Below are positions 1 to 11,509 of a stretch of 11,509 nucleotides of DNA, in pieces. A program made the position numbers and the translations under genes. Each line of letters opens with the position of its first letter. Positions within the stretch are counted from its first letter, which is position 1. The notes beneath the pieces were generated by a model. That model saw only the letters and a list, made by a program, of their open reading frames with translations. It made no database searches and was not told the origin of the DNA. Origin of the DNA: Candidatus Thorarchaeota archaeon (GTDB taxonomy: Archaea; Asgardarchaeota; Thorarchaeia; Thorarchaeales; Thorarchaeaceae); the NCBI GenBank assembly GCA_016839605.1, contig JAEOTX010000155.1, positions 1-11,509 on the forward strand, written 5' to 3'.

Positions 1-50
1 CATTGATGGATAGCATATCTGAAGACCTAAGCAAATTAGCCGAGAACTAG
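1..50 (+). CDS. 3' end of an upstream CDS truncated by the window edge (...LMDSISEDLSKLAEN*), product unknown
   Basis: Frame open from position 3 to TAG at 48-50, encoding an amphipathic-helix-like peptide. Too short to assign a family. Confidence 0.45.
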   Translation, partial: LMDSISEDLSKLAEN

Positions 51-212
51 GAATTCGAGCATGTTGTCTAAGAGAGATAATGTTCATTGATGTACACTAA
101 TGTTGGGACTCTTCTTATGGTTGTTCATTCCATAAGTCAGAAGAGCTGACAGAAGGCTCACGTCTATGTCGCAATTCAGGTTCGACTCGGAAAGTCATGG
201 AGCGGTCTTGTA

Positions 213-1508
213 ATGGTCAATAGAGATGAAATAATCAAGAAAGAGTCCAAGTATATGGTTCCAGCTTACGCTCGTAAGCCCATAGTCATCTATGAGGGGA
301 AAGACACTGTTGTACGAGATCTTGATGGAACGGAGTATATTGATTGCATTAGTGGAATCTCAGTGGTGAATGCGGGCCACAGTCCAGAACGACTCGTTAA
401 AGCTGGTTCGGAGCAATTATCGAAGCTCATTCACTGCTCTGGTCTCTATCACAATGTCCCCCAGACTTTGCTGGCTGAAAAACTCGCTGACCTCACGCCA
501 AGCAATCTGACCAAATCATTCTTCTGCAACAGCGGAGCAGAAGCGGTCGAGGGTGGAGTCAAAATTGCAAAGAAGTATAGTGTTACTCAGGGTCGCACAG
601 GTGCAGGGGTAATCGCATTAGAGGGCTCCTTCCATGGAAGACTCAGCCTTTCCCTCACCCTGACAGGTCAGGCGAAATACAAGCACGGTTTTGGGACCTT
701 TGCCAATGCCCCTGGCGTAGCTCATGCACCAATGCCATATTGCTATAGATGCCCGCTTGAATTTCCTGATTGTAGCACTGAATGTGCTAGAAGAGTAGAG
801 GACATCGTCAAGTATCATACTACGGGCGACGTTGCGGCTATGATTGTGGAGCCAATCCTAGGTGAGGGTGGCTTAGTCGTGCCCCCTCAGGAGTATCATG
901 ACTTGGTGCTAAAGATATGCAAAGAACACGATATTCTCTACATCGCTGATGAGGTACAAACCGGCTTCGGAAGAACAGGAAAAATGCTTGCGATTGAAGA
1001 GTTTGGAATCAAGCCAGACATCATTACAATGGCCAAGGGATTGGGCGCAGGGATGCCAATTGGTGGCTACATCACCACAGACGAGATAGCAAACTGTCTA
1101 GAGTCAGGTGATCACTTCTCAACCTTCGGTGGGAATCCTGTGAGCTGTGCAGTGGCACTAGAGAATCTCATCTATCTCGATGATGCTGGACTAGTCAAGA
1201 ATTCTGAGAAGATGGGTGGCATGCTGATGAAGCAACTGAAAGAGATTCAGCAGAGCAACAAGTACATCGGTGAGGTGCGAGGTAGGGGTCTTATGATCGG
1301 CATCGAGCTTGTGAAAAACACTGGTACAAAAGAACCTGCAGTTGATGAAACACAGACAGTAGCCAAGAATCTGATGAAAAATGGAGTTCTAGTTGGAACA
1401 GGCGGTGTCAAGAAGAACGTAATTCGCCTCCAACCTCCGTTGTGCATCACTGAAGAAGAATCTCAGAAAGTCCTGAGTCTGCTCGAGACCGAGTTCAAAC
1501 AGCTATAG
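213..1508 (+). CDS. Class-III PLP-dependent aminotransferase (GabT/ArgD-like omega-amino acid/amine transaminase)
   Basis: Motifs FCNSGAEAVE, SFHGR, EPILGEGG, ADEVQTGFGRTG, DIITMAK (K275 = PLP lysine, codon 1035-1037), STFGGNP and IRLQPPL. Length of 431 aa is typical. Confidence 0.95.
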   Translation: MVNRDEIIKKESKYMVPAYARKPIVIYEGKDTVVRDLDGTEYIDCISGISVVNAGHSPERLVKAGSEQLSKLIHCSGLYHNVPQTLLAEKLADLTPSNLTKSFFCNSGAEAVEGGVKIAKKYSVTQGRTGAGVIALEGSFHGRLSLSLTLTGQAKYKHGFGTFANAPGVAHAPMPYCYRCPLEFPDCSTECARRVEDIVKYHTTGDVAAMIVEPILGEGGLVVPPQEYHDLVLKICKEHDILYIADEVQTGFGRTGKMLAIEEFGIKPDIITMAKGLGAGMPIGGYITTDEIANCLESGDHFSTFGGNPVSCAVALENLIYLDDAGLVKNSEKMGGMLMKQLKEIQQSNKYIGEVRGRGLMIGIELVKNTGTKEPAVDETQTVAKNLMKNGVLVGTGGVKKNVIRLQPPLCITEEESQKVLSLLETEFKQL

Positions 1509-1522
1509 CTACTCGTCAGTTT

Positions 1523-1527
1523 GGAGG
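1523..1527 (+). promoter_or_regulatory. Shine-Dalgarno site GGAGG for the M28 gene
   Basis: GGAGG lies 7 nt upstream of GTG 1535. Confidence 0.6.
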
Positions 1528-1534
1528 CCATGAT

Positions 1535-3316
1535 GTGGAGAAACCCTCAATCGCCAACATCAGAGAAACCATGAGTGCTCTCAACTCATTCGAGCACAAA
1601 ATAGCAGGAACGCCTAATGAACGTCTAGCATCTGAGTACGTTGTGGAAAGACTTCGGAGCCTCGGATTCGAAAAGATAGAAGCGACCACTTTTCGTGTTC
1701 ATGGATGGAATCCCAAATCATGCAAAATCAGAGTCTTGAAGCCAGTTGATAGGACAATCAAGGCCTTTCCTTTTCCTTACTCGCAGAGTTTCAAGACTAA
1801 GGGAACTCTTACACAAGTCAATCAAGTGGATGAATTTGGCAAAAGCAATGATGGAGGTTCAATAGGCCTCTCCTCTTGGGGTTCTCGGCTCTACCTATCT
1901 CCAACGCGAACGTATTATCAAGCAGTCAAGCGAGAACTTGATGCTGTGCTGATCGCATCTCCTGATGAGGGTGACCTTCACAAAGTAGTTGTTATAGAGT
2001 CCGGACGTCAACTCAAGTTCCCAGTGATCAGCATCTCAAAAGAAGATGGGGATTTCTTATCAAGCCTTCTCGAAAAGGGTGAGGTAGAATTAGAAATAGA
2101 TCTGAACATTGAGACTTCTTCAGATGCAGAGTCTATGAATATTGATGCCGTTTTGGAGGGTCAAGAGAATCCAGAACTGGAGGTCTGTATTGGAACCCAT
2201 GCAGATAGCTGGTTCTCAGGAGCGGCAGATAATTGCGCTCCCGTGGCGATTATTCTGGAACTTGCACGCTTGCTCAAGGGGTATGTTGAGAATGGTGGAG
2301 TCTTGAAAAGAAGTGTCAGATTCCTATTCTTCGGAGCAGAGAACGGTGGGGCTGAGGGCTTCTACAACTGGTGCAATGGGTCCAAGGCTTATCTCAACAA
2401 GAACAAGAAGGCTCCTGATAAGATGGTTGCGTACCTTAGTCTTGATTCCGTTGGGTTCCCAAAGCCTGCTCAAAAGTGGATGGGGGCCACCGCTGATCTA
2501 CTTCAGTTTGCTAAAGGCATCGAATCTACAAACTCATCTACTCTAAGATTCGAATACTATGACCCTCCTGGTTACGGTAGCGACCATTGGTTCTTTGAGA
2601 TATCGGGAGTGCCGACTATATATGGCATAACCTTTCCAAGTCATCTCTATCAGACACAGAAAGATGATCTTGATCATATAGACTACAGGGTCGTTCAGGA
2701 CTATGCTGTGTTCATGAATGATGCGCTGTTCAAGATTGCCAACGAAGATTTGTTGCCAATCGACTTGTTCACTCCCCTAGAGAGGTTCGAAGTTATACTC
2801 TCAAAGTACAGCAAGAAGAAAGAATGCCCTATTGACATGACGTCACAATTACTTAGAATCAGAGATATACGTGCAAAGAAATCTGCATTCAAAAAGACAC
2901 TGAGAACCATAGCAAAGAGTGGTGATAAGAAACTACTTCGAAAGACCAATAAATTTCTGACCACAACCTCTCATCTTTTCAACAAGACAATAGGGTGGCT
3001 CTGGAGAATTACCGAGCCAGACGATATTGACTATCTCTCACGCATAGAGATGATTGATGACTATATAGCACTGAACGCTTCAATAATGTCGCTAAAAAGC
3101 ACGCCTGTTGGTATGCTCGCTCTTGAACATGTTGAGCGACTAGAGAGTCAATCCGATAATGCTTACAATTGGATATCAATACATAAGCCGCTAGCAAAGC
3201 TTGAGAAAGAGCGATCCAGAATCTACAAGCTCATTGAAGGAGAGCTTGAATATGTTTCAAAGATACTCGCCACAATGGAGAGTGGGATTAGGGAACTGCA
3301 ATATGAGGATAGGTGA
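1535..3316 (+). CDS. M28-family metallohydrolase with PA-domain insert and helical C-terminal domain (GCPII/transferrin-receptor-like layout); atypical metal site; apparently cytoplasmic
   Basis: N-terminal AGTPNERLASEYV and PA-like FPVISISKEDG. M28 motifs GTHADSW..GAADN (H222, D232), FFGAEN (E269), LSLDSVG (D304), GSDHWFF and YQTQKDD. No signal peptide visible. Confidence 0.88.
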   Translation: MEKPSIANIRETMSALNSFEHKIAGTPNERLASEYVVERLRSLGFEKIEATTFRVHGWNPKSCKIRVLKPVDRTIKAFPFPYSQSFKTKGTLTQVNQVDEFGKSNDGGSIGLSSWGSRLYLSPTRTYYQAVKRELDAVLIASPDEGDLHKVVVIESGRQLKFPVISISKEDGDFLSSLLEKGEVELEIDLNIETSSDAESMNIDAVLEGQENPELEVCIGTHADSWFSGAADNCAPVAIILELARLLKGYVENGGVLKRSVRFLFFGAENGGAEGFYNWCNGSKAYLNKNKKAPDKMVAYLSLDSVGFPKPAQKWMGATADLLQFAKGIESTNSSTLRFEYYDPPGYGSDHWFFEISGVPTIYGITFPSHLYQTQKDDLDHIDYRVVQDYAVFMNDALFKIANEDLLPIDLFTPLERFEVILSKYSKKKECPIDMTSQLLRIRDIRAKKSAFKKTLRTIAKSGDKKLLRKTNKFLTTTSHLFNKTIGWLWRITEPDDIDYLSRIEMIDDYIALNASIMSLKSTPVGMLALEHVERLESQSDNAYNWISIHKPLAKLEKERSRIYKLIEGELEYVSKILATMESGIRELQYEDR

Positions 3317-4215
3317 TGACGAAAATGGGAAGTCGTCTTGGTGTTGCTGGACTTCAGCTAAAGAAAGATCCGTATGATGAAGATAAGAACTTCAGTAATC
3401 TGGAACAAACAACCAGAGGCGTGCGGTCCATGTATCCATGGGTGGATCTAGTATTCACAGGCGAACTCTATCTCCAACAGTATGGAAAGGACGACTGGAA
3501 AGAGCATGCTGAACCAATGCCAAACAGCATGACGGAGAAACTAGCAGAAATCGCTAGGGATACTGAATGTTGGTTTGTGCCTGGTTCGTTTCTGGAGCGG
3601 GATGGTGACAAGATATACAACACAGCTCTTGCATTCAGTCCGAAGGGAGAATTAGTCGCCAAATACAGAAAGATCTATCCCTGGATGCCTTTCGAGGACA
3701 CGAATTTTGGGACTGATTTCGTAACGTTTGATATTCCAGGAATCGCAAGAGTAGGTCTTGTCATCTGCTATGATTTGTGGTTCCCCGAGATCTTCAGAAC
3801 GCTAGCATGGATGGGTGCCGATGTCATTCTACAACCTTCCGCAACATACACCCCCGATCGGCAGGCCGAGTTGATTTTAGTACCAGCTCAAGCAATCATG
3901 CATCAGTGTTATGTCCTCAACTCGAACATTGTAAGCGCAAAGGGCGGAGGACTCTCCATCTTCGCAGACCCAGAAGGCAGAGTATTGCAGCAGGTTGGCA
4001 CACATGAGGAGATAATGACTGAAATCTTAGATCTGGACAGAGTTGAATGGATTCGTCAGAATGGATCCTTTGGCATTACACCCCTCTGGAAGAGTCTTCG
4101 GGATTCCCCTCTAAACATGAAATTCCCTGTCTATGAGCGATTCGAGGATGGAGAGATTCTCAAGAAACTAGGCAAAATGAAAGTTCAGAAGAGCATCCGT
4201 GAGTGGAAGGACTAG
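3316..4215 (+). CDS. Carbon-nitrogen hydrolase (nitrilase superfamily amidase/carbamoylase)
   Basis: Intact Glu-Lys-Cys triad: FTGELY (E50), YRKIYPW (K119), ICYDLWFPE (C151). ATG 3316 overlaps the upstream TGA (TGATG); GTG 3313 is an alternative start. Confidence 0.93.
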   Translation: MTKMGSRLGVAGLQLKKDPYDEDKNFSNLEQTTRGVRSMYPWVDLVFTGELYLQQYGKDDWKEHAEPMPNSMTEKLAEIARDTECWFVPGSFLERDGDKIYNTALAFSPKGELVAKYRKIYPWMPFEDTNFGTDFVTFDIPGIARVGLVICYDLWFPEIFRTLAWMGADVILQPSATYTPDRQAELILVPAQAIMHQCYVLNSNIVSAKGGGLSIFADPEGRVLQQVGTHEEIMTEILDLDRVEWIRQNGSFGITPLWKSLRDSPLNMKFPVYERFEDGEILKKLGKMKVQKSIREWKD

Positions 4216-4281
4216 GCGGTACTACCTTTCGGTATATTTTTCGCTGAGTTACGTCACTGACAACCCAAACTGGAGGAATAG

Positions 4282-5112
4282 TTGACCATGGAGTGGAAAG
4301 ATGGTGCGAAGTGTGCAGTATGTCTGACCTTCGACCTTGATGCCGAGATATCGTGGCGCAATATCCTGGAACGAAACAAGATTGACCGTGATAATCCTGT
4401 AGTGTTATCACTTGGTGAATACGGACCGAAAGCTGCACTCCCTCGGATATTGAGGCTTCTTGAGAAGCACGAAGTCAAAGCTGGTTTCTATATTCCAGGC
4501 GAAGTAGCTGAACGCTACCCCGAAAGTGTGAAGGAGATAGACGGCTTTGGTCACGAAATAGGGCATCATGGTTACTCCCATCGGAATCCAGCAAGCTTGA
4601 CAGTGAAGGAGGAGCGTGAAGAGCTTGAGAAAGGATTTGCCGCATTGGAGCCATTAGTTGAGGAACGTCCTCAAGGTTATCGTGCACCAGCTGCTGACAT
4701 GAGCGAAAGTACGTATTCACTTCTGGCTGAAAGTGGTCTGATGTATGATAGTACAATGATGGGAGCTGACCTCCCATATGTTGTGGAAATCGGAGAACAG
4801 AAGATGGTTGAACTCCCCTTCAAGTGGATCTTAGATGACTGGGCTTTCTTTGGATTCAATTACTTTCCACCTCTTGAGTATCAGAGTGGCATCGATAGCC
4901 ATAGGAAAGTGTATGAGATCTGGGCTGACGAGTTTGAAGCAGTCTACGATGAGGGTCTCTACATGATGCTCGTTATGCATCCTCAAATCATGGGTGTACC
5001 GTCTCGAGCAAAGATGCTTGAGAATCTGATTACAAAGATGAAGACAGATGGAGATGTATGGATCACAACTCCCCTAGAAGTGGCACAGTTCTGGCTAGAG
5101 CAGGAGGGCTGA
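4282..5112 (+). CDS. CE4/NodB-fold 'polysaccharide deacetylase' of the PuuE/HpPgdA-like subgroup
   Basis: Motifs LTFDLDAE, GEYGP, HEIGHHGYSH, GYRAP, YDST, ELPFKWILDDW and MHPQIMG.PSR. SD GGAGGA at 4272-4277; start is TTG 4282 or ATG 4288. No signal peptide. Confidence 0.92.
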   Translation: MTMEWKDGAKCAVCLTFDLDAEISWRNILERNKIDRDNPVVLSLGEYGPKAALPRILRLLEKHEVKAGFYIPGEVAERYPESVKEIDGFGHEIGHHGYSHRNPASLTVKEEREELEKGFAALEPLVEERPQGYRAPAADMSESTYSLLAESGLMYDSTMMGADLPYVVEIGEQKMVELPFKWILDDWAFFGFNYFPPLEYQSGIDSHRKVYEIWADEFEAVYDEGLYMMLVMHPQIMGVPSRAKMLENLITKMKTDGDVWITTPLEVAQFWLEQEG

Positions 5113-5117
5113 CAGCA

Positions 5118-5876
5118 TTGAAGAGACTCGGGAACAAGATAGTCGTGATTACTGGGGTGAGTGCAGGAATTGGTCGAGCTTCAGCTCTCTTGTTTGCAGA
5201 AGAAGGTGCTACTGTTATTGGTGCAGACATCGACGAGATTCAAGGAGCAGAAGTAGAAGCAGATATTCGAGAGGCAGGAGGTATGGGTTATTTCGTGAAA
5301 GCCGATGTGTCCAAACAAAAGGATGTTGCGAACCTATTTGTTAAGGCAAAAGAACTCGGTGGAGTTGACGTACTCTTCAACAATGCTGGTGTGGAGGTTG
5401 TGAAGAGTCTGCCCGATACAACGGAAGAAGAGTGGGACCGGTCAGTCAGTGTCAATCTGAAATCGGTGTTTCTATGCATCAAGCATGCTCTCCCTCAAAT
5501 GGAGGAGAAAGGAAAGGGAGTGATAATCAGTAATTCCTCTGCAGCTGGCTTGGTTGGCTCATTCTCTCCAAGCTATTCAGCAGCCAAGGGGGGGATTATT
5601 TCACTGACAAAAGCACTTGCAGTGGATTTGGGTCCAAGCAACATCAGAGTCAACTGCATTTGTCCTGGTGCAATTGAGACCCCGATGTTGGAACGAGTCA
5701 TCGAGATGCAGGGCAATCCAAAGAAAGTAAGAGAGAGGCGGATAAAGAATTACCCAATAGGACGATTCGGAACTGCTGAGGAAGTTGCCTATACTGCATT
5801 GTTCTTGGCGTCTGATGACTCTTCATTTATCACGGGTGCGGTTCTTCCAGTGGATGGAGGTTTTACTTCACGATAG
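5118..5876 (+). CDS. Classical short-chain dehydrogenase/reductase, probably NAD(H)-preferring
   Basis: Motifs TGVSAGIG, acidic ADID after beta-2, NNAG, catalytic YSAAK, VNCICPG and VDGG. Start moved from ATG 5058 to TTG 5118, which has SD GGAGG at 5103-5107 and avoids a 55-nt overlap with the CE4 gene. Confidence 0.93.
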   Translation: MKRLGNKIVVITGVSAGIGRASALLFAEEGATVIGADIDEIQGAEVEADIREAGGMGYFVKADVSKQKDVANLFVKAKELGGVDVLFNNAGVEVVKSLPDTTEEEWDRSVSVNLKSVFLCIKHALPQMEEKGKGVIISNSSAAGLVGSFSPSYSAAKGGIISLTKALAVDLGPSNIRVNCICPGAIETPMLERVIEMQGNPKKVRERRIKNYPIGRFGTAEEVAYTALFLASDDSSFITGAVLPVDGGFTSR

Positions 5877-5940
5877 GTTCTCACAGTTTCATGATCACAA
5901 CGCGGTCTTTCAATCTTTAGTGCTCCCAAAAGACTGATGT

Positions 5941-5980
5941 GAAAGGTCAGCTTAATACTAACGATTTCGCTAAGAGGGAG
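5941..5980 (+). promoter_or_regulatory. Putative archaeal promoter (purine-rich BRE-like GAAAGG plus TATA-like CTTAATA) and SD-like GAGGGAG for the TPR gene
   Basis: CTTAATA at 5951-5957 lies about 35 nt upstream of GTG 5990; GAGGGAG is at 5974-5980. Confidence 0.35.
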
Positions 5981-5989
5981 AATCATTCT

Positions 5990-7474
5990 GTGAAACCACT
6001 TGGAACTATAACGGCCTGTTTTCCACATGTGGACCCGGATACAAAATCCACTCTGGAATCAATCATGCATGAGGCTAAAGATTACAACGATTTTGCAGAT
6101 AGATTGAGTGAGAGAGCTATCAAAGATTCTGTTCTTCCATTGGTGAATTACTTTGCATACTTTCATGCATATAATCAGAACAGATACAATCTGGTTCGCA
6201 AAATCATAGAGGAGGACACAGTATCAGAACTTGTAAGACCCTTTGCACTCATGATTCAGCCACAAGACTCGACGGATTGGGTCGAGTTTCAGAAGGCAAT
6301 CATATCGGCCATCAAAGCTGCACCAAATGACTGGATTGGCTGTCACATCTACCTCACGTGGCGTGGTTTGATGGAAAGTGCGTCGTATTATCCTGAGAAG
6401 GACACAGACCTGAAGCCACTTCGTATTCTTGAATCCAAGATTGAAAATGATGAAATGTTCAGTTACTTCTCACATCATCTTCATTTGTACAATGCATGGA
6501 AAATGATGGCAGAGGGTAATACTGAATCTGCAACGAAATCCTACAATAGAGCTATAACGCTGGCCAAGAAGCATGACGATTTGGAATCTGTAGCGATACT
6601 TCTAACCGATAAGGCAAACATTATCAAATGGAGCAATTTCCAAGAGGCATTGAGCATCCTCAAGATCTCGAGAGAAATCAGCGAGCAATTGGGGTACACT
6701 TATGGTCTTGCACTGAATGAGCGAATCTTGGGGTTAATTGCTCAAGCACGCGGTGAATATGAAAAGGCTATTGAATACTTGACTGAATTTGCCACATCCG
6801 CAGAGTCTCTTGGTCATGACATTGTCTTTCACAAATGCGTCATTGGAAGAAACTACAACCTGATGAATGATGGGCGAAAGGCTTTGGAACTCACAACTGA
6901 GGCGTTGGAGGAAACATCGTCACCATCACCTTGTTTTCCTTACATACAGAATGCGTGGGCGCTGCTGATTCTCGATAGGCTTGAGGAGGCTATGATTAGT
7001 CTGGATAAGGCCAGAGAACCAGCAATGAAATCGGGTGTTGAGTGGCTTCTTGGACAGATATATTTCTTGGAGGGACTGATTCACCATAAACAAGATGATC
7101 TTGCATCAGCGAAATACGCACTAGAGCAGGCACACTCAATTTCTGAGAGGCAAATCGGATTTTCTAACTTGACACTACTGAAATTAGCAGACGTGGAGAT
7201 TGAAACATACTCGTATAAAGAAGAGAATGCAGACAATGATGTATCAGGACCATGGTTGAAGCAGCTGTTGGACCATGTCCAGCAAAAGGATGTTCCAGGA
7301 ATAGCGGCTCAGGCTATACTTCTCAAAGCCAAGTTTAGATTCAAGCAAGGGCACACTATGGAAGCAAAGAAACTGCTTCAAAGAGTTCTGAGGACCTCGG
7401 ATACATCAGGAATGCACTACCTCAGAAATATGGCTGAGTTGATGTTTCCAGATCTCATGATTTCCGGTCGCTGA
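5990..7474 (+). CDS. Tetratricopeptide-repeat (all-helical) protein with an uncharacterised N-terminal domain
   Basis: TPR-like helix pairs such as GNTESATKSYNRAITLAKK, LGLIAQARGEYEKAIEYL, EGLIHHKQDDLASAKYALEQA and FKQGHTMEAKKLLQRVL. Likely start is GTG 5990 (MKPLGTITACFPHVD), 9 nt after GAGGGAG. Confidence 0.82.
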   Translation: MKPLGTITACFPHVDPDTKSTLESIMHEAKDYNDFADRLSERAIKDSVLPLVNYFAYFHAYNQNRYNLVRKIIEEDTVSELVRPFALMIQPQDSTDWVEFQKAIISAIKAAPNDWIGCHIYLTWRGLMESASYYPEKDTDLKPLRILESKIENDEMFSYFSHHLHLYNAWKMMAEGNTESATKSYNRAITLAKKHDDLESVAILLTDKANIIKWSNFQEALSILKISREISEQLGYTYGLALNERILGLIAQARGEYEKAIEYLTEFATSAESLGHDIVFHKCVIGRNYNLMNDGRKALELTTEALEETSSPSPCFPYIQNAWALLILDRLEEAMISLDKAREPAMKSGVEWLLGQIYFLEGLIHHKQDDLASAKYALEQAHSISERQIGFSNLTLLKLADVEIETYSYKEENADNDVSGPWLKQLLDHVQQKDVPGIAAQAILLKAKFRFKQGHTMEAKKLLQRVLRTSDTSGMHYLRNMAELMFPDLMISGR

Positions 7475-7657
7475 TTCTCCAAGCATGAGGTGTCTCACTG
7501 TTTTCCTCATCTCTGCATTACCTGATGTAGTTACAGAATGGGTTTTCTCTTTCGAATCACTATCTTCTCTGTTCTAGCGCCAATACCAATTCTCTTAAGG
7601 CTAGGAGTCTGAGCGCTTTGCACCAGAACAACATGATCGCCACAGTCATTCAACCTG

Positions 7658-7663
7658 GGAGGA
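7658..7663 (+). promoter_or_regulatory. Shine-Dalgarno site GGAGGA for tldD
   Basis: Lies 9 nt upstream of ATG 7673. Confidence 0.65.
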
Positions 7664-7672
7664 ATAATATTC

Positions 7673-9103
7673 ATGTTTGACAAGTTACAGCAAAGTGTAG
7701 ATGCCGCAGAGAAATTCGGAGCTGATTTTGTAGAGGCACGCTATGATGACCTCACATTGAGAACCCTACAACGAACTGACGATATCTGGAAAGACATCCA
7801 GATTAAATCAAGAATGGGCGTGGCCATCACGAGCTATGTCGAGGGCGTATCAGGCTTCTCCTTCTCTGCAAGCAGTGATACGAAGGACATCTTGATAGCT
7901 GCTGAGAAGTCGGTAAAGATGGCAAAAGCATCAGCGGCTGTGGCTAGTTTGAAACTGCCATTTGAAGGCCGTGACCCTGTTACAAGCAAAAAATCCGACA
8001 CAAAGAGTGTGAAGAAACATCCCAGAGATTTCGATCTCGCATACAAAACAGACTTGGTCAATAGATCTGTAGAAACTGCGCGAGAATTTGGTGACAGTAT
8101 TCGCAACATCAGGGGCCTCTATGGTGAGCTCTATGGACCCAAGTATCTTGTGAATAGTGATGGCTCACGCATTGAATGGAATTTCTTAGTAACAGACTTG
8201 CGGTGCCTAGTCACTTCGATGACCCCGTCTGGTGACATGGTCAATGGCAGTGAGGGTAAGGGCGGGACATATGGCCTGGAGATATTTGACGCCAAGGATA
8301 CTACACCTGAATCCATCGGTGAAGCTGCAGGTTCTCGAGCAAAAGAACAACTAAAGGCGAAAGCCTGCCCTGCAGGGAAGTTCCGGGCAATGATTGAGAA
8401 CCGGCTCACTGGCGTGCTAGCTCACGAGAGTTTTGGCCATCTCAGTGAAGCCGATTTCATTGTCACTGGTGGATCTCCTCTAACTGACAAGATTGGGGTT
8501 GGACTCGGAACTGAACATGCCACTATTATTGACGGCGGAAAGATAGACATCGAAAAGTATGGTGGATTGTGGCTTCCTTACGATGATCAAGGGACTCCTA
8601 CATCGAAGACAACCGTTCTTGACAATGGAACTCTCAGACATTACCTCCATGACAGAGGCACTGCAACAAAGCTCGGTCAGGATCCAACCGGTAATTCAAG
8701 AGCAGTGAATTTCGTGTTTCCGCCAATATGTAGGATGACTAATACTTACTTTGCGCCAGGTGACTTGACTGAGGATGAGGCTCTAGAACTACTTGGAACG
8801 GGAGTGTATGCAATCCAATCATCAGGAGGTCAGGTCCAGGGTGATGGTAGTTTTCTATTCAAGGCCATACGTGGCTACTGGGTTGATAAAGGTGAGATGC
8901 AATATCCAATCAGAGAGGTTTCACTCTCTGGCAATATCCTAGAATTACTATCCAAGGTTGAAGGAGGGACGAAGGAGCTGAAGATTTCCTCAGGCTACTT
9001 TGGAGGTTGCGGAAAAGGTGACCAGTATCCATTACCCACAGGATTGGGCGGCCCGAAGCTGGTCATTGATGGCGTTACATTTGGAGGAGAGGCTGGCGCT
9101 TAA
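7673..9103 (+). CDS. tldD: TldD-family metalloprotease, catalytic subunit
   Basis: HESFGH metal motif (H251, 8423-8440), YDDQG, TGNSRA, RMTNTY, and C-terminal GGCGK.DQ with the conserved Cys ligand (C446). Confidence 0.93.
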   Translation: MFDKLQQSVDAAEKFGADFVEARYDDLTLRTLQRTDDIWKDIQIKSRMGVAITSYVEGVSGFSFSASSDTKDILIAAEKSVKMAKASAAVASLKLPFEGRDPVTSKKSDTKSVKKHPRDFDLAYKTDLVNRSVETAREFGDSIRNIRGLYGELYGPKYLVNSDGSRIEWNFLVTDLRCLVTSMTPSGDMVNGSEGKGGTYGLEIFDAKDTTPESIGEAAGSRAKEQLKAKACPAGKFRAMIENRLTGVLAHESFGHLSEADFIVTGGSPLTDKIGVGLGTEHATIIDGGKIDIEKYGGLWLPYDDQGTPTSKTTVLDNGTLRHYLHDRGTATKLGQDPTGNSRAVNFVFPPICRMTNTYFAPGDLTEDEALELLGTGVYAIQSSGGQVQGDGSFLFKAIRGYWVDKGEMQYPIREVSLSGNILELLSKVEGGTKELKISSGYFGGCGKGDQYPLPTGLGGPKLVIDGVTFGGEAGA

Positions 9104-9109
9104 GGAGGT
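9102..9109 (+). promoter_or_regulatory. Strong Shine-Dalgarno site AAGGAGGT for pmbA, overlapping the tldD stop codon
   Basis: Lies 7 nt upstream of ATG 9117. Confidence 0.8.
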
Positions 9110-9116
9110 AACAAAG

Positions 9117-10511
9117 ATGGAATATGATAGTCTGAAAGATGAGCTCTTGTCGATTGCTGATACATCATTGAAGTACGCTACCTCACTAGACAGTTCTGCT
9201 GAGTTTGAAGTGTTCCTGTTCTTTAATAGCGAAACCCATGCTGAGATATCACAGGGTGTTGTTAAGGCGAAAGACGGCATAACTTTAGGCAATGCTGTTC
9301 GAGCCGCAAAAGGGAAACGTGTGGGATTTGCCTGCGCAAGTGGCATAGCAATTGAAAGAGTGAAACTGAGTGTAACTGAAGCACTTGGCATAGTCAATAG
9401 CATCAAGGTTGAGGATGAAAGATTCCAGGGCTTCTCTGATCCTAGTCCTCCTGGAAAGGATGGCGTTTTCGCAGAAGAGATTCTAGAGATTGATACCGAT
9501 TTCCTACTGAAGTCTAGTGAAGCAATGATAGCTGAAGCCAAGTCTGTTGACGAGCGTGCAAAAATCATTAGTGGAGAAGCTTCGGCATCTTGGGGTGGCT
9601 ATGCTGTTGCAAATAGCCGCGGAGTTCTCCAAGGCTCAGTCTTTGGTGATAATGGTTGTGTAGTCCAAGTTCAAGCTATAGAAGGAGAGGAACGTAGGGG
9701 TGCTTTCGAGTTTGATGTGGCACGTGACCGTGTGTACAAAGCCGATGGATTGGGAAGAATGGCAGCTGAGGAAGCTGTGTCTCTACTTGGCGCTAAGAAA
9801 TTGGATATAACATCAAAAATGAGGACACTCTGGACCCATATCCCAGCAGCATTGTATGTTCTATCAAGTTTGGGACAGTCTGTACTAGGGCAGCCAGTGG
9901 TTGAGGGTAGATCACCGCTTAACGACAAGATTGGAGAAGCTATCGCCAAAAGTGACCTGACCATCGTAGATAATGGACAGAAACCCATTGGTTTAGGAAC
10001 GCATGCTGTCGACCAAGAGGGGCATCCACAGAGGAAAAATCCGATTATTGAAAAAGGAGTCTTGAAGGGCTTCTTGTTCAATACATACTATGCACGTGCT
10101 TTTGGGGTTGAGTCAACAGGGAATTGTGCTCGCGGCGGTGGTGCATTTCAGAGCAGCAATCCGTATGAATCCTCACCAGGAGTTGTCACCAAATGGTTAG
10201 AGATCAGTGCAGGAACGAAGTCTGAGGAGGACATCATCTCAGAAGTAGACGATAAAGCTGTACTCATCAAAGGATTCCCTTTGGGAATATTCCACACGAA
10301 TGTCAGCACTGGCGAATTCTCCATTGTAGCGGGTGAGGCCTTTTTGGTCGAGAAAGGTGAAGTCAAGTATCCAATCCAGCCTGTTTCAATCGCTGGCAAT
10401 TTCTACGAGGGTTTCAAGAATCTGACAGGAATCTCCAGCGAATTACGTCCACTTCCTTGGGGTATAGAGAATCCAATGTTTGCCTTTGATGGGTTTTCTG
10501 TCACCGGATAA
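9117..10511 (+). CDS. pmbA: PmbA/TldE-family non-catalytic partner subunit
   Basis: Motifs ANSRG, DQEGHP, IIEKGVLKGFL..TYYAR, STGNC.R, TGEFS and IAGNF; no HExxH. Directly follows tldD. True start is ATG 9117 rather than TTG 9000. Confidence 0.92.
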   Translation: MEYDSLKDELLSIADTSLKYATSLDSSAEFEVFLFFNSETHAEISQGVVKAKDGITLGNAVRAAKGKRVGFACASGIAIERVKLSVTEALGIVNSIKVEDERFQGFSDPSPPGKDGVFAEEILEIDTDFLLKSSEAMIAEAKSVDERAKIISGEASASWGGYAVANSRGVLQGSVFGDNGCVVQVQAIEGEERRGAFEFDVARDRVYKADGLGRMAAEEAVSLLGAKKLDITSKMRTLWTHIPAALYVLSSLGQSVLGQPVVEGRSPLNDKIGEAIAKSDLTIVDNGQKPIGLGTHAVDQEGHPQRKNPIIEKGVLKGFLFNTYYARAFGVESTGNCARGGGAFQSSNPYESSPGVVTKWLEISAGTKSEEDIISEVDDKAVLIKGFPLGIFHTNVSTGEFSIVAGEAFLVEKGEVKYPIQPVSIAGNFYEGFKNLTGISSELRPLPWGIENPMFAFDGFSVTG

Positions 10512-10535
10512 GTGATTCACCAGAATAAGCCAATC

Positions 10536-11468
10536 CTAGAACAGCGCCAAGTATAATCCAAGCAACGCCAAGGCTAATGCAACTATCAAGATAGGCACTG
10601 TGCCGTAATCCCGCTCAGAAACGACCTCTTGACCCATTTCTGCTCTGAGTGTCACAACCTCATTCAAGACCTCTCTCTCATTGACACGACTTGCCATTGC
10701 TGTAGCAAGTAACATAGCTACTGTGGATAGGGAGACTGTTACTGAGATTCTTTCTGCTATTGCTTCTTGAGCATTGGCTTCGTCAAGCTTCTGATCAATT
10801 TGGTTCTGCAGGTCCTGTATCTGGCTCAATAGGAAGTATTCGCAGAGGAATTCAACTCCTGCATCCTCACGAATGAACATCTCTGCACCAGTTTCGCGGT
10901 CATGAGGCCGCATTAGAAACGGCAATTCTTGAATTGCGGAATAGCTGAAATACATTCCATAGTACTCCATAGGGGTTTCAATTGCTACCGGGGAGCCGTG
11001 CTCATCAATGAAGGCAGTCCACATTTCCCAAGTGATAGAGAAGTCGTAGCCCTCGCTTTCTTCACTGGCAATCCAATAGGTGCTGGTTGACCCATTGAAA
11101 TGTCTATACAGATGCAGGATGAGTAGCATGCTTTGATAGCTATTCAACTGGTCAAGCATTTCGGCAGCTTTTCTGACATAGATTTCTCGCCGCTCGGGAA
11201 TAATACTGCTATTCAGCAACTCAAACTCTCTATCTACCCATATTGTTTCCATCAGGAGATCATTGTACTCCCGAACCCTCGTAACATCTCGCTGCATTAG
11301 GAAATAAGCTTTGGACTCCATTCGTTGGAGATCATCCTGCATTGCACGAGCATCTTCATGCATTTGAGTTGCAGCTGAGGAGTAGTCTTCTTGGAAACTT
11401 CCTGCGACATAAGCTATACCGGAGATCAGTAAGATTGTAAGAGTCGCAAGTATGTATTGCTTCTTCAT
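10536..11468 (-). CDS. Hypothetical membrane protein: N-terminal signal/anchor, helical/coiled-coil ectodomain, two C-terminal hydrophobic helices
   Basis: MKKQYILATLTILLISGIAYVAG at the N-terminus; coiled-coil-like segments (DARAMQDDLQRME, IQDLQNQIDQKLDEANAQE); hydrophobic ISVTVSLSTVAMLLATAMA and TVPILIVALALALLGLYLALF. Preceded by a perfect SD. Confidence 0.85.
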   Translation of the reverse strand: MKKQYILATLTILLISGIAYVAGSFQEDYSSAATQMHEDARAMQDDLQRMESKAYFLMQRDVTRVREYNDLLMETIWVDREFELLNSSIIPERREIYVRKAAEMLDQLNSYQSMLLILHLYRHFNGSTSTYWIASEESEGYDFSITWEMWTAFIDEHGSPVAIETPMEYYGMYFSYSAIQELPFLMRPHDRETGAEMFIREDAGVEFLCEYFLLSQIQDLQNQIDQKLDEANAQEAIAERISVTVSLSTVAMLLATAMASRVNEREVLNEVVTLRAEMGQEVVSERDYGTVPILIVALALALLGLYLALF

Positions 11469-11472
11469 ATCT

Positions 11473-11480
11473 TCACCTCC
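11473..11480 (-). promoter_or_regulatory. Shine-Dalgarno site GGAGGTGA for the membrane protein gene
   Basis: TCACCTCC on the + strand, 4 nt before the ATG at 11468. Confidence 0.8.
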
Positions 11481-11509
11481 TTAACATTGCGTAGCCCGTT
11501 AGGACATAC

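Follow-up and report, generated by a model that had tools for sequence, protein, structure and literature searches.

A selected M28B-like protein of Asgard archaea with replaced Zn1 ligands, encoded in a conserved cluster next to a canonical paralog

Two-metal peptidases of family M28 hold their zinc ions by a set of five ligands (His, bridging Asp, Glu, Asp/Glu and His), with a general-base Glu directly before the ligand Glu. In the structure 1amp, Zn1 is bound by Asp117, Glu152 and His256 and Zn2 by His97, Asp117 and Asp179, and glutaminyl cyclases hold their sole zinc at the Asp/Glu/His site (PMC7522609, Table 1). In GCPII, Glu425 and His553 belong to Zn1, His377 and Asp453 to Zn2, Asp387 bridges the two metals, and Tyr552 is the oxyanion-hole tyrosine that is paired with Zn1 (PMC8538779). 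Proteins of the GCPII type dimerise through a helical domain, and the transferrin receptor is a non-enzymatic relative within M28B (PMC10794815). Here we analyze M28b, an M28 protein encoded in an 11,509-nucleotide stretch of DNA from a Candidatus Thorarchaeota archaeon (GenBank assembly GCA_016839605.1, contig JAEOTX010000155.1, positions 1 to 11,509 of the forward strand; hereafter the window). Both ligands that are unique to Zn1 are replaced by amides in M28b, and the gene is kept under purifying selection in a conserved cluster in which it is preceded by a canonical paralog, M28a. We propose, with moderate confidence, that M28b is a selected, non-hydrolytic or strongly attenuated metal- or ligand-binding partner of the intact M28a.

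Active site, conservation and predicted fold of M28b

The gene and its parts lie in the window as follows.

1535 to 3316, plus strand: M28b, a three-domain M28B-like protein with the Zn1 site ablated (open reading frame, Pfam, alignment, fold comparison)
2198 to 2446, plus strand: the kept Zn2-type ligands H222, D232 (bridging) and D304, the general base E269, and N270 (2342-2344) in place of a Zn1 ligand (codons, alignments)
2642 to 2653, plus strand: the loop S-H370-L-Y372-Q373, in which Q373 stands for the Zn1 His and Y372 corresponds to the oxyanion-hole Tyr of GCPII (family alignment, codons, PMC8538779)
1817 to 2119, plus strand: apical/PA-like insertion, approximately residues 95-195 (secondary structure of the model; BSAP, 3iib and 2ek8 align across it)
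2747 to 3313, plus strand: helical domain at the C-terminus (about residues 405-593), which corresponds to the dimerisation domain of GCPII and the transferrin receptor (model helices 412-592; alignments with TfR1, PSMA, GCPIII and NAALADase L)

The open reading frame (ORF) encodes 593 amino acids in an intact frame, starts with GTG and has a GGAGG sequence 7 nucleotides upstream. Pfam Peptidase_M28 (PF04389, clan MH) matches residues 202-391 (E-value 2.7e-25; 89.6 bits against a cut-off of 21.3), which makes M28b a member of family M28. An earlier note on this DNA had stated that H222, D232, E269 and D304 are intact, that Asn follows the catalytic Glu and that Gln takes the place of the His in the YHT motif. 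Reading the codons directly gave the same residues at the same positions: H222 (CAT, 2198-2200), D232 (GAT, 2228-2230), E269 (GAG, 2339-2341), N270 (AAC, 2342-2344), D304 (GAT, 2444-2446), H370 (CAT, 2642-2644) and Q373 (CAG, 2651-2653). The phmmer alignment with the solved aminopeptidase 2ek8 agrees, pairing N270 with the second, metal-binding Glu of GAEE and Q373 with the His of YHT. Three members of the five-ligand set are present in M28b (H222, D232 and D304), and two deviate (N270 and Q373). Since N270 and Q373 both replace ligands unique to Zn1, both substitutions fall on one metal site. The note's assignment of E152 and H256 to Zn1 and of H97 and D179 to Zn2 is the one given in Table 1 of PMC7522609 and, for GCPII, in PMC8538779. 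The note had also held the arrangement to be the opposite of that in glutaminyl cyclases, and the site table in PMC7522609 bears this out: the single-zinc set of these enzymes is Asp at site 2, Glu at site 3 and His at site 5, and M28b has Asn and Gln at sites 3 and 5. What is left in M28b is the half that the known single-zinc M28 proteins leave unused.

A search of 5.8 billion proteins yielded 95 relatives, nearly all from Asgard metagenome-assembled genomes (MAGs) labelled Thor-, Hod-, Sif- or Promethearchaeota. The consensus of their alignment reads GAEESGS and LYHTQKDD at the two motifs. We found the N270/Q373 pair in 11/11 members of M28b's own clade, which share 66-79% identity, and in no other clade of this alignment; close orthologues with AEE and YHT, which would have spoken for an error or a lineage-specific decay, did not turn up. 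The general base E269 is kept in M28b and in 10/11 clade members, being Q in the remaining one (L003/P0003). Among 138 representatives of the wider family at 50% identity, 115 have the full ligand set, and the EN..Q combination occurs only in the cluster of M28b. As a separate observation, the EE pair reads HS (HDHSDH) in the representatives P0128, P0156, P0204, P0206 and P0230, five 50%-identity clusters of about 570-590 amino acids; this recurrent degenerate signature may mark another non-canonical M28 lineage.

The substitutions are conserved at the protein level and vary at the DNA level. Across the eight loci for which DNA was available, N270 is encoded by AAC or AAT, Q373 by CAG or CAA and H370 by CAT or CAC. 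The ratio of nonsynonymous to synonymous divergence (dN/dS) of M28b is 0.14-0.23 in four close pairs; the neighbouring aminotransferase has 0.03-0.09, the CN hydrolase 0.09-0.12 and M28a 0.13-0.18. Within the clade 212 of the 593 positions (36%) are invariant, and the most conserved parts are the active-site blocks (221-240, 85% invariant; 261-280, 70%; 341-380, 70-75%). Only eight fixed differences set the clade apart from its canonical relatives, N270, G271 and Q373 among them. H370 is present in 11/11 clade members, at a position that is variable elsewhere (P, H, D, K, E, A, R, Q, T, V, Y). The second metagenome run X4, from the same study and not flagged as source, covers the whole gene with two differences, neither of them in the codons of N270 and Q373; in runs X5 and X7 these codons lie outside the coverage. 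These data uphold the view of the earlier note that selection rather than decay accounts for the substitutions. M28b combines what is expected of a pseudoenzyme, namely loss of catalytic residues (two of five ligands, alike in 11 orthologues) and purifying selection on the rest; its loss of activity is putative.

The AlphaFold2 model of M28b has a predicted local distance difference test score (pLDDT) of 92.8 and a predicted template modelling score (pTM) of 0.92. Its top Foldseek matches are PSMA/GCPII, GCPIII, NAALADase L and transferrin receptor 1 (TfR1), with E-values of about 1e-28. With VIA-align, TfR1, PSMA, GCPIII and NAALADase L superpose on 520-529 residues over model positions 1..590, including the C-terminal helical domain (Z 31-34). 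The bacterial PA-domain aminopeptidases BSAP, 3iib and 2ek8 match the first 410-490 residues (Z 37-40), and SGAP/AAP align only about 245-254 residues over positions 1..403-406. By sequence, bacterial PA-domain aminopeptidases are closest (profile E-values 1e-38 to 5e-47). The model thus suggests that M28b has the three-domain architecture of M28B (GCPII/PSMA/transferrin receptor), with a protease-like, an apical and a C-terminal helical domain. Pfam searches of the isolated apical and C-terminal parts gave no match even at an E-value of 10, neither to PA (PF02225) and TFR_dimer (PF04253) nor to any other model, and the M28B likeness of these accessory domains would be structural only, with no sequence signature. 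We saw no signal peptide or membrane anchor in the N-terminus, and NCBIfam has no model for M28b. A family-specific insertion of seven residues directly follows the EE/EN motif (window 2345-2374, residues 271-280); it reads S.DFY.W in canonical members and G.EGFYNW in M28b, is absent from all solved M28 relatives and is modelled with lower confidence (pLDDT 76).

Slots a and b across Asgard loci

M28b belongs to a gene cluster whose order is the same in 20 Asgard loci: M28a (slot a), a class-III aminotransferase, M28b (slot b) and a CN hydrolase, often followed by a PuuE-like deacetylase-fold gene and an SDR oxidoreductase gene. Slot a is canonical (HDEEDH) in all 11 copies that span the six sites, and two fragments are canonical where covered. 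Slot b occurs in several states. The EN..Q state is found in the window and in seven relatives. A separate clade carries D232E together with E269Q, with the motif GAQESGS (L014, L015, L016, L019 and L023; 16 proteins of the 95-sequence alignment, A1). The sister clade of the EN..Q group (P0013-P0017; L011:1548-3350; L020:9980-11782) has E, K or G for the bridging Asp, Q or L for the general base, E for D304 and H for Y372. As both the bridging Asp and the general base are gone there, the metal pair cannot be held, and in this clade an M28B that looks still more disarmed has been retained in the same slot of the operon. A coupled change of the D232E/E269Q type recurs in this sister clade, and the coupling looks convergent. 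Slot b is canonical in L012, L013, L017, L018 and L021.

The IQ-TREE tree gives a monophyletic a clade (100/100) and groups the EN..Q clade (100/100) with its sister clade (100/99); the GAQES clade is nested with the canonical L012 and L013_9929 (100/99). These positions indicate that the slot-b active site was reshaped at least two times independently. Altered b was seen only together with a, in 15 loci where a is visible; at locus L006 the a-tail stands at the contig start, as in the window. Whole-genome searches showed that three genomes without an a-clade gene (G002, G003 and G004; loci L013, L017 and L021) have a canonical b. An absolute rule, by which b would be altered whenever a is present, was rejected on account of L018 and of G001 with L012. 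The nearest relative of M28b, in L003 (79% identity), carries E269Q and D304S on top of the N/Q pair; its terminal branch is 0.11 compared with 0.12 for the window, and dN/dS of the pair is 0.17. Further loss of the base and of one Zn2 ligand is therefore tolerated in the L003 lineage under unchanged constraint. The suggestion from tree paths that b evolves about twice as fast as a was rejected by pairwise dN/dS, a being sometimes the more diverged. Between L005 and L007, identity is 63.5% for a and 76% for b, and both paralogs evolve faster than the neighbouring genes.

The remaining features of the cluster in the window are listed below.

3 to 50, plus strand: last 15 codons (LMDSISEDLSKLAEN) and stop codon of M28a, the canonical slot-a paralog, which the contig end truncates (C-terminus comparison)
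81 to 127, plus strand: four-box operator-like element with TGTTCA at 81, TGTACA at 91, TGTTGG at 101 and TGTTCA at 122 (offsets 0, 10, 20, 41), between the M28a tail and the aminotransferase, upstream of the aminotransferase-M28b unit
213 to 1508, plus strand: class-III (omega) aminotransferase, first gene of the unit (Pfam PF00202, E-value 9e-117; below every NCBIfam equivalog cut-off)
3313 to 4215, plus strand: CN hydrolase of the nitrilase superfamily, its start overlapping the M28b stop (Pfam PF00795, E-value 2.6e-34)
4282 to 5112, plus strand: polysaccharide-deacetylase-fold protein that matches allantoinase PuuE best (TIGR03212, 1.3e-28, well under its cut-off)
5058 to 5876, plus strand: SDR oxidoreductase, last conserved gene of the unit (library matches, locus comparison)

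The 15 residues encoded at the contig start are identical in 9/15 positions to the slot-a C-termini of L003, L005, L007, L008 and L010 and in 0-5/15 to those of all other paralogs. From this match we conclude that M28a stood immediately upstream and that the contig end truncates it; the assembly, which is 80% complete, does not contain its body. The four-box element stands at the same place in 20 related loci. It also precedes M28a in L007, L014, L015, L019, L020, L022 and L023, and in L007 it is found before both slot a and the aminotransferase. The aminotransferase is 90-95% identical in orthologous loci, and the CN hydrolase follows slot b in 19 loci.

Several further observations concern the cluster and its surroundings. 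A TldD (HESFGH motif) and PmbA pair lies downstream at window positions 7673-10511 and is 92% identical to the pair of L006. There it directly follows the SDR gene; in the window a TPR gene (5939-7474) lies in between. L006 has an extra, distant class-III aminotransferase-like gene (4355-5773, 26% identity) between the CN hydrolase and the deacetylase-fold gene. In L005 (7775-9106) the aminotransferase is split into two ORFs of 155 and 275 aligned residues, by a frameshift, a stop or an assembly error. In L009 and L010, M28a is found at 6002-7831 and 6692-8524 and M28b at 9128-11083 and 9821-11776, respectively.

Possible roles of M28b

In the reading that we prefer, M28b has retained its fold and substrate pocket together with Glu269, Tyr372 and the Zn2-type site (H222/D232/D304), and the co-catalytic two-zinc centre cannot form because both Zn1-specific ligands are amides. 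Most likely M28b would still bind one metal together with a substrate or product of the pathway, and it would work with the co-regulated M28a encoded one gene upstream, the two probably being partner subunits that pair through the helical dimerisation domain which they share. Such a role is plausible because GCPII-type proteins dimerise through this domain (PMC10794815). The substitutions with their conservation and selection, the fold, the operon and the link of altered b to the presence of a are shown by the data above; from these, from the independent remodellings of slot b and from the L003 orthologue we infer the loss of hydrolysis, the ligand binding and the a-b complex. Further observations in favour are that the predicted fold matches homodimeric GCPII and the non-enzymatic transferrin receptor over all three domains, that the same four-box element stands before both M28a and the aminotransferase-M28b unit, and that Zn1, which is ablated in M28b, is the site on which every known single-zinc M28 protein relies (PMC7522609).

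The strongest competitor is an active mono-metal hydrolase, of an amidase, deacylase or carbamoylase-like kind, with one metal at H222/D232/D304 and Glu269 as the base. The amides of N270 and Q373 would replace Zn1, together with Tyr372, as hydrogen-bond donors to the scissile carbonyl, an arrangement undescribed for M28. We regard this as possible and rather unlikely. The general base, the three ligands and the oxyanion-hole Tyr are kept in 10/11 members, the changes are highly targeted (N270, G271 and Q373 among the few fixed differences), conservation is highest in the active-site loops, and the slot between aminotransferase and CN hydrolase is filled by a canonical enzyme in genomes without M28a. 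However, every single-zinc M28 protein that has been characterised holds its metal at the other site (PMC7522609), and in GCPII it is Zn1 that pairs with the oxyanion-hole Tyr (PMC8538779). Moreover, L003 dispenses with E269 and D304 under unchanged constraint, the sister clade occupies the same slot without the bridging ligand, and altered b is found only beside an intact a. The more specific proposal that M28b runs hydrolysis or other C-N chemistry on the 'auxiliary' Zn2 site alone, with Asn270, Gln373 and Tyr372 as an organic oxyanion hole, is slightly more doubtful still. If true, it would be a mononuclear M28 mechanism mirroring that of glutaminyl cyclases, and one that arose in Asgard archaea when a GCPII-like peptidase was duplicated and then subfunctionalised.

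The site might instead still be binuclear, with H370 and the side-chain oxygen of Asn270 holding a second, perhaps harder metal (Mn, Fe, Mg), so that M28b would be an ordinary peptidase with a changed metal preference. Metal binding through the Asn oxygen is established for other binuclear hydrolases, the metallophosphoesterases for example, and the constancy of H370 in the clade, with its CAT/CAC variation, at a position that is variable in all other clades would fit such a role. Yet H370 coexists with H373 in many canonical members, which argues that it is no compensatory novelty, and the L003 orthologue has lost D304 and E269. We judge this explanation improbable. By far the least credible is an assembly or binning error or a decaying pseudogene: although the source MAG is only 80% complete, the same residues in 11 independent assemblies with synonymous variation, the intact frame, the dN/dS values and the identical codons in X4 rule it out.

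A number of observations weigh against M28b as an inactive or attenuated partner. Over about 34% divergence, 10/11 members keep H222, D232, E269, D304 and Y372, which fits a working mono-metal hydrolase equally well. Two a-bearing genomes (L018; G001 with L012) keep a canonical b, and on the whole slot a does not evolve more slowly than slot b. L009 and L010 form a mosaic, with synonymous divergence (dS) of 0.87 for M28a, 0.26 for the aminotransferase and 0.05 for M28b, a pattern that points to recombination between M28a and the other cluster genes. The complex of M28a and M28b is putative. Finally, the maximal velocity (Vmax) of GCPII E424Q is down only 8-fold (PMC8538779), so that slot-b clades with the E-to-Q change may be attenuated and not dead, which weakens the analogy; to call these clades fully dead would be too strong.

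The earlier note had offered new chemistry and a ligand-binding pseudoenzyme as alternatives. The comparative evidence leans towards a ligand-binding or non-hydrolytic protein and away from new chemistry, because an intact co-regulated paralog stands upstream, because the slot has lost other catalytic residues elsewhere and because L003 has lost E269 and D304. In the literature on Asgard M28 proteins and on M28 pseudopeptidases we found no description of the M28b family or of a Zn2-only M28. The loci amount to a natural experiment in disarming a two-metal hydrolase, in which different Asgard lineages have removed different parts of the active site from one orthologous slot (the Zn1 ligands, or the bridging Asp and the general base, or nearly everything), only with an intact paralog present and with the gene under selection. 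Genes of the M28b family are named 'M28 family peptidase' by NCBI and 'Iap family predicted aminopeptidase' by JGI; peptidase counts in Asgard metabolic reconstructions consequently include copies that probably do not cut.

Comparison with known systems

In MPP alpha/beta (M16) and in TldD/TldE-PmbA, an intact subunit is encoded beside a homologous subunit without metal ligands, and both are retained. Such pairs of active and inactive metallopeptidase paralogs serve as a working analogy only: their folds are unrelated to that of M28b, and the M28a-M28b complex is only putative. By sequence and by the fold of the protease and PA domains, M28b is closest to BSAP/YwaD (6hc6), 3iib and the Aneurinibacillus protein 2ek8. 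Unlike M28b, these carry the complete set of five ligands and have no counterpart of the helical domain of roughly 190 residues.

Over the full three-domain architecture, M28b resembles GCPII (PSMA), GCPIII and NAALADase L (MEROPS M28B), on which about 525 of its 593 residues superpose (Z 31-33). It shares the motif order of GCPII and has equivalents of His377, Asp387, Glu424, Asp453 and Tyr552, whereas the equivalents of Glu425 and His553 are Asn and Gln. M28b differs from these three proteins in being cytoplasmic, without a membrane anchor, in an identity of only 14-19%, and in the 7-residue insertion after the EE motif. Its model suggests that the three-domain PSMA/TfR architecture exists in Asgard archaea.

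The likeness to transferrin receptor 1 extends over 520-525 residues of the fold (Z 31-34), and this receptor sets the precedent for retaining an M28B protein for binding although it has no peptidase activity (PMC10794815). In contrast to this eukaryotic membrane receptor, M28b keeps one complete metal site and the general base and is encoded in a metabolic operon beside an intact paralog. Glutaminyl cyclases and GPAA1 likewise combine the M28 fold with one metal and a changed chemistry (PMC7522609), but their zinc sits at sites 2, 3 and 5, whereas M28b keeps only 1, 2 and 4, the opposite half. M28b may therefore be likened to the non-peptidase or single-metal relatives within M28 (transferrin receptor, glutaminyl cyclase, GPAA1) and possibly to inactive partners such as MPP-alpha and PmbA/TldE, as a prokaryotic, cytoplasmic counterpart to the story that leads from GCPII to the transferrin receptor.

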